64,000 nt of DNA from the sequence record NC_005859.1. One strand, written 5' to 3'. A program made the position numbers and the translations under genes. Below, in pieces: positions 42,290 to 45,150 of the stretch; positions within the stretch are counted from its first letter, which is position 1, and each line of letters begins with the position of its first letter. The notes below the pieces were generated by a model. The model had not been told where the DNA came from and searched no databases. It saw only the letters and a list, made by a program, of their open reading frames with translations. Source of the DNA: Escherichia phage T5.

Positions 42290-42757
42290 TTAAGTTTTAG
42301 TGACAGCAGGCTTATAAAATGTATGTCCCTTAATCTTAGTTGTTTTCTTAAACTTCTTTGTCCAGTATGGTTTATCTTTACCACTATGGAAGTATAAAGC
42401 TCCATGTGTAGGATCTTGTGGTAAATCAACGTAGTATATCACTCTAGCTAAATTCTTGGCGGTTTGCCAAGCCTCATCGGTTTTATCGACTTTTGGTCTC
42501 TTAGATACCCAAGAGAACTGGTTAGACTGATATACTACTTTACAGTAGGAATCTGGAAATTTGCCGGAGTTTACACGGTTTTTAGTAACCTGTGCAACCG
42601 CCATCATTCCCTTTATGCCCTCACCACGACTCTCGAAATAGATATTTTTAGCAATGCAATCTATTTCTTTTGCATCGTGCGATGCTTGACTACTAAAGCT
42701 GAAGGTAAGGGCAGCTACTAAAAGCAAAGCTGCCTTCATTCTTTTTACTCCTGCCAA
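42290..42757 (-). CDS. secreted cell-wall hydrolase (SleB/Hydrolase_2-like)
   Basis: 155 aa; signal peptide; CIAKNIYFESRGE...KNRV...FP.SYC.VVYQ..QFSW pattern. Confidence 0.65.
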   Translation of the reverse strand: MAGVKRMKAALLLVAALTFSFSSQASHDAKEIDCIAKNIYFESRGEGIKGMMAVAQVTKNRVNSGKFPDSYCKVVYQSNQFSWVSKRPKVDKTDEAWQTAKNLARVIYYVDLPQDPTHGALYFHSGKDKPYWTKKFKKTTKIKGHTFYKPAVTKT

Positions 42758-43062
42758 TCGTATTCAATACGATTGGGGTTTTCTTTGTATCCCAAGTCAA
42801 GCAAATCATTACGCATAGTTTGCTTAGCTACGGGATTCGAGGTTACTAGTACCACTTTCTTTGGTCTCTGCCCAAATTCTAAAAGTAAACGAAGAATTTG
42901 ATAACCTTCCATACCATCTACAGCCAAATCGTTATCGAAATAAACAAAATGGCCAGTGGTATCAGTTTTATTCAGAAACTCGATAGCGGCTTCTGGGGTT
43001 CGAATGATAATGTCCATTCCGTGAAGATTACGCACATCATCAATCAAAATATGAAAAGTCAT
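42745..43062 (-). CDS. hypothetical protein (receiver-like fold?)
   Basis: 105-aa ORF; weak resemblance only. Confidence 0.45.
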   Translation of the reverse strand: MTFHILIDDVRNLHGMDIIIRTPEAAIEFLNKTDTTGHFVYFDNDLAVDGMEGYQILRLLLEFGQRPKKVVLVTSNPVAKQTMRNDLLDLGYKENPNRIEYDWQE

Positions 43063-43092
43063 AATAGCCTCGTTTCATCAATTTAAAAATAT

Positions 43093-43121
43093 ATTATACA
43101 GAAAACTTAATAAATTAGCAA
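43093..43121 (-). promoter_or_regulatory. T5-type early promoter
   Basis: minus-strand TTGCTA-N17-TATAAT. Confidence 0.65.
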
Positions 43122-43504
43122 ATACATTTTTAAATTGTGAAACTAGTAAACCGATAAACAGCCTAGAGGCGCCACAGGCCATATCTTACGAGCCATGTAC
43201 CTTTGATCTAGGGTTTGAATCATCAACGAATACTTTGCATCTTTTAGCTTTAGAAGTTTAGAAGTTTGAGTTCTTTAAACTTTTCAGCTTTCATACTTAA
43301 ATGTTGATCTTTGAAGTTGTGTCGGTAATATCAACGACTTTTTGTTTTTACGTGTCAGATTAAATGTCTGATGTAATAAACATAATCTCCAATAGATTAT
43401 ACTTTATAGTATGGTCAGCGGTCTTATTTAACCTCGTATTTCAACCGCTGCTGCGAGGTAAGATGCTTGGGCTTTCGTCTACCGATTTACTAGCTTTTAA
43501 ATTA

Positions 43505-44143
43505 TTACTCTACTTCAATGAAGGTAGAGGCATTAGACTCGGACAGAACAAAGTCAACATTTGTTGCAAAGTCCTGGTATTCCTCGTCATGCTGTTTAAT
43601 CAGCTTCTCCAGTCCCAGCGGATCAATCAAGAATGGAGTATTCTTGAGTTCCAACAGGTTGAGCTGCATTTTAACTTCATCTTCGGAAGTTTTCTTATCG
43701 CGGGTAGCCATGCTATCCTGCAAACGCTCATATTTAGCATCAAACTGTGCTTTCTGCGTATTAAACTTAACCGTAGCGGCATGGAACTGCTTACGCATAT
43801 TAGCCAGCAACTGAGCTTTAAGCTCCATAGAACGCTTAGCTTCAATTGCTTCTGCAACAGTCATTTTACGAGAACCGATCTCAACGATCGTTTCTGCGTT
43901 GCTCTTAATCAGAGCAGCTTTGATACGATCACGCTGGGACATCATATCCAGCAGAGACTGGAAATCAGTCTTAATACGAGTAGACAGGGCATCTACTTCG
44001 ATTGCGGCGCCAACTACAACCTGGTTTTTATCCTTACCTTCACCAACAGCGATCAGAAGCTGTTGTTCAGTAGCTTTACGGATTTTAGCTTCCAGAGATT
44101 TGATGGTTGCCAGAGCACGAGTTTTAGAAATACGAGTGGTCAT
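43505..44143 (-). CDS. hypothetical coiled-coil protein
   Basis: 212-aa ORF with AAGGAAG SD; preferred over the overlapping antisense 265-aa ORF. Confidence 0.55.
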   Translation of the reverse strand: MTTRISKTRALATIKSLEAKIRKATEQQLLIAVGEGKDKNQVVVGAAIEVDALSTRIKTDFQSLLDMMSQRDRIKAALIKSNAETIVEIGSRKMTVAEAIEAKRSMELKAQLLANMRKQFHAATVKFNTQKAQFDAKYERLQDSMATRDKKTSEDEVKMQLNLLELKNTPFLIDPLGLEKLIKQHDEEYQDFATNVDFVLSESNASTFIEVE

Positions 44144-44195
44144 TGTTTCTTCCTTATATGAAGTTTAAGATTTGAATTTGTTTAAAGTTGGTCTA

Positions 44196-44378
44196 TTACA
44201 GACCAATTGCCAGTAGGGTACGCAGAACAGTATCTTTACTGTTATCAATTTTAGGATTAGCACGATTTAGCAGATCAAAGATTTTCTGGACACCTGATTG
44301 ACGTTCAGCCATACGACGGATACCCAGATTACGAGTAGCTTTCTTACCATTTTTACGAACATTTTTAGATACTGGCAT
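44196..44378 (-). CDS. small basic protein
   Basis: 60 aa Lys/Arg-rich, directly downstream of canonical promoter. Confidence 0.4.
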   Translation of the reverse strand: MPVSKNVRKNGKKATRNLGIRRMAERQSGVQKIFDLLNRANPKIDNSKDTVLRTLLAIGL

Positions 44379-44418
44379 ATTTGTTTTCCTTTTGTTGTTT
44401 TCTCAAATTTATGAATAT

Positions 44419-44447
44419 ATTATACAGAATTTTGAAGCTGGAAGCAA
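44419..44447 (-). promoter_or_regulatory. T5-type early promoter
   Basis: minus-strand TTGCTT-N17-TATAAT. Confidence 0.65.
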
Positions 44448-44448
44448 A

Positions 44449-45150
44449 TCAAATTTTGATTTTTTCGACCATAGCTGCAACACAATAGCTCTCAACTAAG
44501 GCATCGAATGCTGGGTCATGTTTAACTGGGTAGATTCCATAACGAATGGTGTCCATCTTCTCCATCTTAGCTTTTGCCCAGCTAATCCCCTCTGCTTCTA
44601 GGTCTTTGTAGCTATAACCAGCCTGCATCCAGAGATTGCGGAGAGATCGAACATTGCCCAAGTTCCAGAATTTCCACGGAACTATTTCTTCATTGGTTCC
44701 AGCATGAAACGTATTTGCAGAATAGATAGTCATATCAAATTCTGGGCCGTTGCCATAATACAAAGCATTCTCACCTAGAGCCAACTCCATAATATTTTGG
44801 GCCATAGAGTAAGCAGCATAGTTAGAGCCGAGTTTATTAGTACAACGATGTTTACCATTTTGGAATGCAATCAGCTTTGGATTACGATCGTTCATAGCTT
44901 CCATAATATGGAGAGCTGATGGACTATTTTTAGCTTGATCCATCCAGAATGCTAGAGTAGATGCCGTAACTTTAGCTCCAGAATTAAGCTGATCTTGTAC
45001 ATCCAAAGTAACAAACACTAGATCGGGGTCTTTATCAATTCCATGCATAGCCACAAAAGCGAAAGAAGGCATTGCGATATGAGTAGTACCGCAATCTCCT
45101 GGAGTTCCTAGAGATTCAATATCTAGCATACCAAATGGTTTTACTTTCAT
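44449..45150 (-). CDS. DEDDh-type 3'-5' exonuclease-like protein
   Basis: 233 aa; Exo I-like LDIESLG and Exo III-like H-x4-D (HDPAFDALVESY). Confidence 0.5.
   Translation of the reverse strand: MKVKPFGMLDIESLGTPGDCGTTHIAMPSFAFVAMHGIDKDPDLVFVTLDVQDQLNSGAKVTASTLAFWMDQAKNSPSALHIMEAMNDRNPKLIAFQNGKHRCTNKLGSNYAAYSMAQNIMELALGENALYYGNGPEFDMTIYSANTFHAGTNEEIVPWKFWNLGNVRSLRNLWMQAGYSYKDLEAEGISWAKAKMEKMDTIRYGIYPVKHDPAFDALVESYCVAAMVEKIKI

Follow-up and report, generated by a model that had tools for sequence, protein, structure and literature searches.

A SleB-like cell-wall hydrolase, a DexA-like exonuclease and a candidate structured RNA in the early region of phage T5

The early region of Escherichia phage T5 appears to encode two unrelated enzymes, a SleB-like cell-wall hydrolase (T5p081) and a DEDDh exonuclease of the DexA type (T5p085), that lie within a gene order kept across the T5-like family. 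We analyzed both genes and the DNA between them in a stretch of 64,000 nucleotides (nt) of the T5 genome (NC_005859.1), referred to below as the window, to which all positions refer. All genes discussed are on the minus strand, flanked by the tRNA cluster on one side and by the genes of nucleotide metabolism, rnh-thy-frd-nrd, on the other (Table 1). The account in which T5p081 is an exported murein enzyme and T5p085 a DexA-type exonuclease has, taken as a whole, a probability of about 0.7 in our estimate. It builds on sequence family, catalytic residues, folds, conservation, gene order and purifying selection, which were observed directly. Between the two genes we found a conserved, covarying non-coding element that follows a gene of the ORF080 family.

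Over positions 42000-45400, identity is 100% to phage T5 strain st0 (AY692264.1) and 99.8% to T5 ATCC 11303-B5 (AY587007.1), and 440 further T5-like genomes match this part at 80-99% identity. The gene order was ThyA, RNase H, p088, DUF7022, DUF7230, exonuclease, (variable genes), SleB-like, (ORF077), YqeY-like in 35 of 35 loci, except that p088 was undetected in 2 of them and the YqeY-like gene in 4. The hydrolase and exonuclease genes are core syntenic early genes across the whole T5-like family, which makes them good first targets for knock-out. They are separated by only 68-103 bp in lineages that have no T5p084, ORF080 and cREC. We read the shared order as family synteny; it does not argue that the two enzymes are functionally linked. 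Both genes and their families are already annotated in T5 and in hundreds of relatives; new here are the finding that the exonuclease is widely mislabelled as a "metallopeptidase" and that the protein belongs in the DexA family, and a small exonuclease partner protein that is revealed by gene fusion in relatives.

The SleB-like hydrolase T5p081

The initial annotation described a Hydrolase_2/SleB-like protein with a signal peptide, and this assignment was confirmed. T5p081 matched the Pfam Hydrolase_2 profile over its full length (positions 1-100 of 100) with an E-value of 1.5e-26 and 93.3 bits (cut-off 27). In a phmmer search the protein matched the catalytic domains of SleB (4f55, 4fet) at E 1e-8, and YFESRGE of T5 was placed over YGESRGE. 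Residue E36, which is invariant in the 26 homologues that were aligned, aligned with chain positions 26 (4f55) and 120 (4fet); assuming that these chains begin at residues 132 and 32, E36 presumably corresponds to the catalytic Glu157 of Bacillus cereus SleB and Glu151 of Bacillus anthracis SleB. SleB has a single essential catalytic glutamate (PMC11148199, PMC12331253). An AF2 (AlphaFold2) model built from the 26 homologues had a pLDDT of 89.8, and the sole matches at E <=1e-3 in a fold search of the PDB were the same two SleB structures, with a target TM-score of 0.70-0.76 and 29-30% identity.

The protein scored 52.7 bits against the NCBIfam SleB equivalog TIGR02869, for which the cut-off is 236.5, and only positions 79-201 of that profile were covered. 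With this score and without the N-terminal peptidoglycan-binding domain, T5p081 is ruled out as a SleB orthologue and is, judged by its sequence, a single-domain, CwlJ-like member of the family. It is under purifying selection (omega about 0.10-0.12), and each of the 35 T5-like loci compared has it, with identity as low as 37%. Among phages, 1248 records contain homologues; these include rV5-like phages, Phapecoctavirus, Pakpunavirus and other phages of Gram-negative hosts. The gene already carried the label "cell wall hydrolase homolog" or "sleb" in the earliest T5 genomes (2004), and the hydrolase is in that sense already known. The coordinates of the initial annotation implied a TTG start at 42757. 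We corrected this to the ATG at 42739, which is preceded at 9 nt by a GGAG site lying within the final codons of the upstream gene and is also the annotated start; the TTG is unlikely.

The N-terminus, MKAALLLVAALTFSFSSQA followed by SHD, contains one basic residue, a 13-residue hydrophobic core and small residues at -3/-1. The signal peptide was called by a rule-based reading of the n-, h- and c-regions and the -3/-1 motif rather than by SignalP. There is no lipobox Cys, and an h-region of 13 residues is too short for a signal-arrest-release anchor. An equivalent hydrophobic N-terminus was present in 26 of 26 aligned homologues, down to 33% identity. The protein would probably be exported by the Sec pathway and cleaved after Ala19. 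The mature form is predicted to have 130 amino acids (aa), a mass of 15 kDa, an isoelectric point (pI) of 9.7 and a Lys-rich C-terminus, features that agree with those of Hydrolase_2 lysins of Gram-negative phages (PMC8223927). Cys28 and Cys66 co-occur in 25 of 26 homologues; both are missing in the most distant one, as they are in Bacillus SleB. Their co-conservation suggests that they probably form a periplasmic disulfide that would stabilise the enzyme.

As the initial annotation stated, the gene is far from the lysis cassette. The distance to the holin-endolysin pair is 21.9 kb, and the direct neighbours encode cREC (T5p082) and a soluble 56-aa protein, so that T5p081 is neither adjacent to nor co-transcribed with a holin gene in the manner of a canonical lysis cassette. 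Its transcription would start at an early sigma-70 promoter, with cREC as the first cistron and the hydrolase gene as the second. The stop codon of T5p082 is 5 nt ahead of the hydrolase ATG and the hydrolase Shine-Dalgarno sequence is within the final codons of T5p082, an arrangement by which the two genes are translationally coupled in T5. The cREC domain is predicted to process cyclic phosphates (PMC7824862). A conserved functional pair of cREC and hydrolase is ruled out, since cREC is located elsewhere in one T5-like locus (L003 in our numbering) and is absent from several lineages. In L003 the gene is at 5510-5833, with NADAR beside it and several genes between it and the hydrolase downstream, and in two T5-like loci the cREC allele is only 50% identical.

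Related proteins have been noted in other phages. The gene list of phage AKFV33 includes a SleB-like hydrolase (PMC3326045), and for T5-like Salmonella phages a second endolysin with a SleB domain was noted far from the holin (PMC11180984). A SleB-like protein with a signal peptide from an rV5-like phage was reported to be toxic upon expression in E. coli (PMC7344957), and a SleB-fold effector from a type VI secretion system (T6SS) depends on its catalytic Glu for its toxicity in the periplasm of E. coli (PMC11148199). That T5p081 could be a second enzyme acting on murein in the periplasm is the reading that best fits its sequence, in view of the signal, the Glu, the Cys pair, its occurrence in 35 of 35 loci and these analogues; it is not a new one. 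T5p081 would then be a CwlJ/SleB-type enzyme that cleaves the glycan strands of peptidoglycan, probably a periplasmic lytic transglycosylase that acts through Glu36 and independently of the holin. Its likeliest role would be that of an auxiliary enzyme, weakening murein or assisting lysis alongside the cytoplasmic endolysin, an L-Ala-D-Glu peptidase.

The exonuclease T5p085 and the weighing of both enzymes

For the 233-aa protein encoded by T5p085 the initial annotation reported DnaQ-like Exo I and Exo III motifs. Both are present, as is Exo II (D139), and the DEDDh class was upheld by several lines of evidence. All 26 homologues, the most distant at 35% identity, keep D10 and E12 (Exo I), D139 (Exo II), and H211 and D216 (Exo III). 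The protein matched the Pfam family Rv2179c-like (PF16473) with E 4.5e-8 and 33.4 bits (cut-off 27), a family that T4 DexA matches with E 2.4e-22 and 79.9 bits, and PHROG 255, 'exonuclease', with E 1e-51. A search of the PDB with the single sequence yielded only spurious matches to designed armadillo repeats over 27 residues, and a PDB search with a profile yielded nothing, so that a fold comparison was needed. The AF2 model (pLDDT 90.8) has the RNase H-like exonuclease fold, and RNase T was top-ranked when it was searched with Foldseek. In an hhalign comparison with T4 DexA the Exo I, Exo II and KFWN motifs were aligned. The Trp of the latter motif, W152 in DexA and W162 in T5, is invariant in the T5p085 family. 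In DexA, for which the catalytic residues have been described, W152 enters the active site of the partner subunit (PMC12153337); its invariance suggests, by analogy, that T5p085 is probably a dimer like DexA. An AGGA ribosome-binding site of its own precedes the gene, which evolves under purifying selection (omega 0.05-0.07).

Directly upstream of the exonuclease gene is T5p086. Its product shares 39-72% identity with the N-terminal 60-70 residues of 324-334-aa proteins, the remainder of which is the exonuclease (blastp E down to 9e-27). DUF7230 and the exonuclease form a single in-frame open reading frame (ORF) in loci L003, L008, L036 and L037 and in Klebsiella T5-like phages, and are separate genes in the T5 lineage. 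Because they are fused in relatives, T5p086 and T5p085 probably work together. The DUF7230 family is small, with 15 relatives among 1.84 billion representatives, nearly all of them short stand-alone proteins. The basic N-terminal motif of T5p086, MRNFVAKNDFNRA, is not repeated elsewhere within the window. DUF7022, the family of T5p087, is always encoded directly upstream of DUF7230 and the exonuclease. It has an invariant N-terminal motif, TEANR..R...H...H..D.Q, and a C-terminal motif, FG..PN.FG; one UniRef name for a homologue is 'virion structural protein'. A GC-rich hairpin followed by a T-run is located between DUF7022 and DUF7230 (45433-45448, minus strand) and a second hairpin spans the DUF7230 stop codon (45176-45201, minus strand); they may attenuate transcription within the operon of promoter P-H207.

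The exonuclease gene is near those for ribonucleotide reductase, dihydrofolate reductase, ThyA and RNase H. We propose that T5p085 is a Mg2+-dependent DEDDh 3'-5' exonuclease of the DexA/Rv2179c-like family that probably acts together with DUF7230, the small acidic product of the gene directly upstream, and that its most likely task is the trimming of 3' ends on single-stranded DNA (ssDNA) or oligonucleotides in phage DNA metabolism, for example in nucleotide recycling, recombination or homing repair. The initial annotation had suggested host nucleic-acid degradation or RNA processing as possible roles. An ssDNA or oligonucleotide substrate is favoured because DexA, the nearest characterised relative, is an exonuclease that acts on DNA and the neighbouring genes serve DNA-precursor synthesis.

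Export, the disulfide, enzymatic activity, substrates and biological roles are what we infer from these observations, and several points weigh against the two-enzyme account. The literature searched contained no biochemical or genetic data on T5p081 or T5p085. Bacillus SleB requires muramic-delta-lactam in its substrate, which E. coli murein does not contain, and action of T5p081 on ordinary murein is assumed from the analogues. An active periplasmic muramidase that is made early is expected to damage the host well before lysis time, and some restraint must exist. A non-lytic function, in which T5p081 would serve local murein remodelling, superinfection exclusion or an early change of the envelope rather than help lysis, would fit the early promoter, the distance from holin and endolysin, the retention of the gene in every T5-like lineage despite a complete holin-endolysin pair, and an export that, from the signal peptide, would be holin-independent. 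There is no evidence that favours any specific one of these roles, and we consider the proposal tentative and rather unlikely. If the hydrolase is indeed periplasmically active from early infection on, the question becomes how a phage with a holin-gated endolysin tolerates or uses a holin-independent muramidase.

With respect to the exonuclease, the hhalign probability for the match to DexA was only 54%, and RNase T, ERI1 and REXO2 are structurally nearly as close to T5p085 as DexA is. The founder of PF16473, Rv2179c, is an RNase. Host-DNA degradation in T5 is a pre-early function and the T5p085 gene sits behind early promoters; the pre-early timing of host-DNA breakdown weakens a scavenging role like that of DexA. 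The enzyme might thus act on RNA like Rv2179c and RNase T, for example by trimming the trailers of CCA-tRNA precursors or by degrading host RNA. The Pfam family carries the name of the Rv2179c 3'-5' exoribonuclease, the exonuclease gene is a few kb from the tRNA region, and 22 of the 23 predicted tRNA genes of the window encode CCA followed by short trailers, which would need exonucleolytic trimming of the 3' end. Such trimming is already supplied by RNase T, PH, D and II of E. coli, and the conserved neighbours encode DNA-precursor enzymes, which leaves an RNA substrate doubtful. Still less probable, in our view, is a role in counter-defence, in which the enzyme would destroy signalling oligonucleotides that are short or linear, in a locus with cREC (and, in relatives, NADAR and Sequestin). 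It would connect with the predicted activity of cREC on cyclic phosphates (PMC7824862) and with the occurrence of NADAR, cREC and Sequestin in the same stretch of L003, but PADLOC gave 0 matches among seven proteins, and the link with cREC, NADAR and Sequestin differs from lineage to lineage, in contrast to the fixed order DUF7022-DUF7230-exonuclease. Most GenBank records name the protein a zinc carboxypeptidase (M14 metallopeptidase). This label goes back to the original T5 records (2004-2005), which cite an IPR000834 / M14 motif, and of the labels in 582 phage records 'metallopeptidase' is the most frequent. Pfam gave no Peptidase_M14 match at E <=0.1, the fold and all five catalytic residues are those of a DEDDh exonuclease, and the PHROG 255 match is to 'exonuclease'. 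We therefore give the label virtually no credence; it is refuted and should be dropped.

A conserved non-coding element and the ORF080 family

The 442 nt between ORF080 and cREC (43063-43504) are annotated as intergenic. Among 27 distinct T5-like sequences they form the most conserved part of the stretch, above the flanking genes. Two blocks, 43371-43504 and 43125-43254, are 98.5-100% and 97.7% identical, respectively, to lineages that reach only 58-75% identity at third codon positions in adjacent genes. With nhmmer the element was found colinear in Pectobacterium phage DU_PP_V (E 3e-14), of which the ORF080 protein is only 42% identical. A blastn search detected it in the unrelated myovirus 4MG, directly after a gene for a 215-aa ORF080 homologue (40% identity, E 9e-51) and 8 nt ahead of tRNA-Thr. 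Loci recorded for the element besides that of T5 are L038 (7651-7960), L042 (2289-2666), L070-L082 and L106-L162.

The element is not coding. Stops occur in every frame and the longest stop-free run is 65 codons. ARAGORN predicted no tRNA or tmRNA in it. A scan of window positions 40500-46500 against Rfam 15 at E <=1 gave nothing inside the element (two tRNAs and two sub-threshold matches were elsewhere), and the same database at E <=0.1 gave, for 8 divergent loci, only tRNAs and sub-threshold chance matches outside the element. It gave no match to the T5 nick-site consensus CCCTGCGCTCTCC and is not a repeat within the window. No paper in the literature searched characterises an RNA element here.

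In a three-way alignment of T5, DU_PP_V and 4MG, the 3' part of the element folds as a three-helix domain, for which the consensus is GAUuAAAUCC...GGCUG. Covariance models built in two rounds, R1 then R2, found this domain in 15 of 16 loci at a fixed offset, including 6 matches that were not used in model building. In the window, the T5 domain was the sole strong match of R2 (69 bits, E 6e-15); the next match had 14.6 bits and an E-value of 0.93. When R2 was run on both strands of 58 diverse phage loci (205 kb), 48 matches at E <=1 were obtained. All 48 were on the strand of the gene, about 150-350 nt after an ORF080-family gene, and none were elsewhere.

Covariation was computed on 41 distinct sequences of the domain. 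The fraction of paired cells was 88%, against 68% for shuffled sequences and 29-51% for partners slid along the alignment, and the covariation score was 0.423, against 0.123 and 0.03-0.11, respectively; none of 500 shuffles reached the observed score. Pairs changed on both sides in 13 of 17 cases, and the three central helices were paired in 98%, 94% and 88%. A U-G pair, seen in 39 of 41 sequences, fixes the strand of the gene as the RNA strand. Alignment to a fitted model inflates these covariation figures somewhat, a bias of which the positional result for the 58 loci is free. Single-sequence folding energies of the element were unremarkable (z -1.15 to +1.66), and the case for a structure rests for this reason on covariation and not on stability.

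In the 5' part of the element we recognised an H-type pseudoknot. Stem 1 was 100% paired, with two double changes. The arms of stem 2 were out of register on the MAFFT alignment, and a scan of each sequence with shuffle controls was used instead. The topology is kept with different arms in DU_PP_V, 4MG, L070 and L074; any pseudoknot candidate occurred in 0-3.5% of shuffles. Both stems differ from those of T5 with pairing kept in DU_PP_V (CCCC/GGGG and UAGCCAC/GUGGCUA) and in 4MG (CCUC/GAGG and CGAGGC/GCCUCG). The existence of a conserved structured element is well supported. It may be a separate RNA or a 3'-untranslated region of the ORF080 message. Inside it, at about 43360-43383 on the minus strand, a perfect TATAAT is followed first by a GGAG and then by a 7-codon ORF (MFITSDI) and a small hairpin of which the sequence varies between phages; this may be an internal promoter, a leader peptide or chance.

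ORF080 itself, with an omega of 0.02-0.04, is the most constrained gene of the stretch. Neither single-sequence nor profile searches yielded a Pfam or PDB relative of the family, and a profile search found 153 relatives in IMG/VR. The PHROG label 'tail fiber protein' on the family is a mislabel. On the opposite strand, AY692264 annotates T5p083, a 265-aa ORF at 43364-44161 (plus strand) that overlaps ORF080; with an omega of 1.2-2.4 and no PHROG homologues, this ORF does not represent a gene.

At nine loci or more, the RNA is followed at a distance of 5-16 nt by the start of a tRNA gene. With a tRNA gene directly downstream, RNase P could define the 3' end of the RNA. We consider it somewhat probable that the ORF080-family protein (205-230 aa) and the RNA of about 380 nt constitute an undescribed protein-RNA pair, in which a stable RNA released by RNase P would act in connection with tRNA or translation, as a ribonucleoprotein or as a regulatory target of the protein. 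Sequence comparison places the pair in T5-like siphoviruses, rV5-like myoviruses and many contigs of large and jumbo phages, among which it is conserved. The larger potential value of the locus may lie here, in an unannotated RNA that is widely distributed, covaries strongly and has a protein dedicated to it in the tRNA regions of phages, and that occurs in T5, the best-studied member, where genetics is available. The initial annotation had missed this pair between the two genes that it flagged, as well as the DUF7230 partner of the exonuclease and the cREC gene coupled to the hydrolase.

The tRNA genes of the window are located at 28038-40847 (minus strand). All 22 standard ones encode the 3'-CCA, usually followed by AA, and neighbours are 6-7 nt apart. 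A 23rd tRNA-like gene at 41431-41504 (minus strand), with anticodon ACT, is without CCA; AY587007.1 annotates a pseudo-tRNA there.

Table 1. Features of the T5 locus, in window coordinates
Feature	Position	Strand	Basis or remark
Canonical T5 endolysin; holin directly upstream at about 20341-21051	19931..20344	-	Reference only
SleB-like cell-wall hydrolase gene (T5p081 / 'sleb'), 149 aa; Glu36, Cys28, Cys66	42290..42739	-	Pfam, PDB, fold, omega
Predicted signal-peptide coding part, residues 1-19, MKAALLLVAALTFSFSSQA	42683..42739	-	Sequence reading; conserved in 26 homologues
cREC_REC gene (T5p082), 105 aa	42745..43062	-	Pfam PF20274, E 3.4e-15
Sigma-70-type early promoter TTGCTA-17-TATAAT for the cREC-hydrolase pair	43093..43121	-	Consensus scan; annotated putative T5P23
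Conserved non-coding element, candidate structured RNA, downstream of ORF080	43125..43504	-	Conservation; no ORF; distant homologues
3' three-helix domain, 84 nt (covariance models R1, R2)	43145..43228	-	R2 score; covariation
H-type pseudoknot, 5' part of element; S1 CCUCG/CGAGG, S2 CAGCGGU/ACCGCUG	43416..43458	-	Read from sequence
ORF080-family gene, 212 aa	43505..44143	-	PHROG 1491, E 3e-82, labelled 'tail fiber protein'
T5p084, basic 60-aa protein, T5 lineage only	44196..44378	-	PHROG 5252; presence/absence across loci
DEDDh 3'-5' exonuclease gene (T5p085), 233 aa, DexA/Rv2179c-like; D10, E12, D139, H211, D216	44449..45150	-	Pfam, PHROG, fold
T5p086, 78 aa, DUF7230	45179..45415	-	Basic N-terminus, acidic Trp-rich tail, pI 4.8
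T5p087, 171 aa, DUF7022, pI 10.9; first gene after promoter P-H207	45458..45973	-	Profile, synteny

Comparison with known systems

With the Bacillus spore-cortex lytic enzymes SleB and CwlJ, T5p081 shares the catalytic fold at 29-30% identity and the Glu in the motif Y-x-E-[SA]-R-G-E. Unlike SleB it has no N-terminal peptidoglycan-binding domain and is a single-domain protein like CwlJ; it also differs in its signal peptide of the Gram-negative type, in its Cys pair and in a host whose murein is without muramic-delta-lactam. Closer in architecture are the SleB-like proteins of rV5-like phages (CB7_83 of Pectobacterium phage, CR3_087 of Cronobacter phage) and the 'second endolysin' of T5-like Salmonella phages, small Hydrolase_2 proteins with a signal peptide that, as in T5, belong to virulent phages of Gram-negative hosts and are encoded outside a classic lysis cassette (PMC7344957, PMC11180984). 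In Certrevirus the SleB-like protein may be the main lysin and is overlapped by a holin-like gene, whereas in T5 a complete holin-endolysin pair is encoded separately and T5p081 has no gene for a membrane protein beside it. The T6SS effector T6EC3 also has the SleB fold, acts in the E. coli periplasm and needs the equivalent Glu for toxicity (PMC11148199), but it is delivered by the secretion system and has an immunity protein as partner; no immunity-like partner was found in T5.

The closest characterised relative of T5p085 is T4 DexA (exonuclease A; PDB 8kel), at only 16% identity. The discrimination of 5-hydroxymethylcytosine by DexA has no counterpart in T5, of which the DNA is unmodified, and the DUF7230 partner or fusion of T5p085 is absent from T4. 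Mycobacterium tuberculosis Rv2179c, which names the matched Pfam family, and E. coli RNase T have the same DEDDh fold as T5p085.

The T5 element is comparable to GOLLD and ROOL, large phage RNAs found beside tRNA genes, in being structured, non-coding, present in large phages and often abutting a tRNA gene. The species 1 and 2 RNAs of T4 are likewise stable phage RNAs found next to tRNA genes. In contrast to GOLLD and ROOL, the T5-type element matches no Rfam 15 family, and it differs from these RNAs and from the T4 species 1 and 2 RNAs in being obligatorily paired with the gene for a protein of 205-230 aa directly upstream, an arrangement that is undescribed for any of them.

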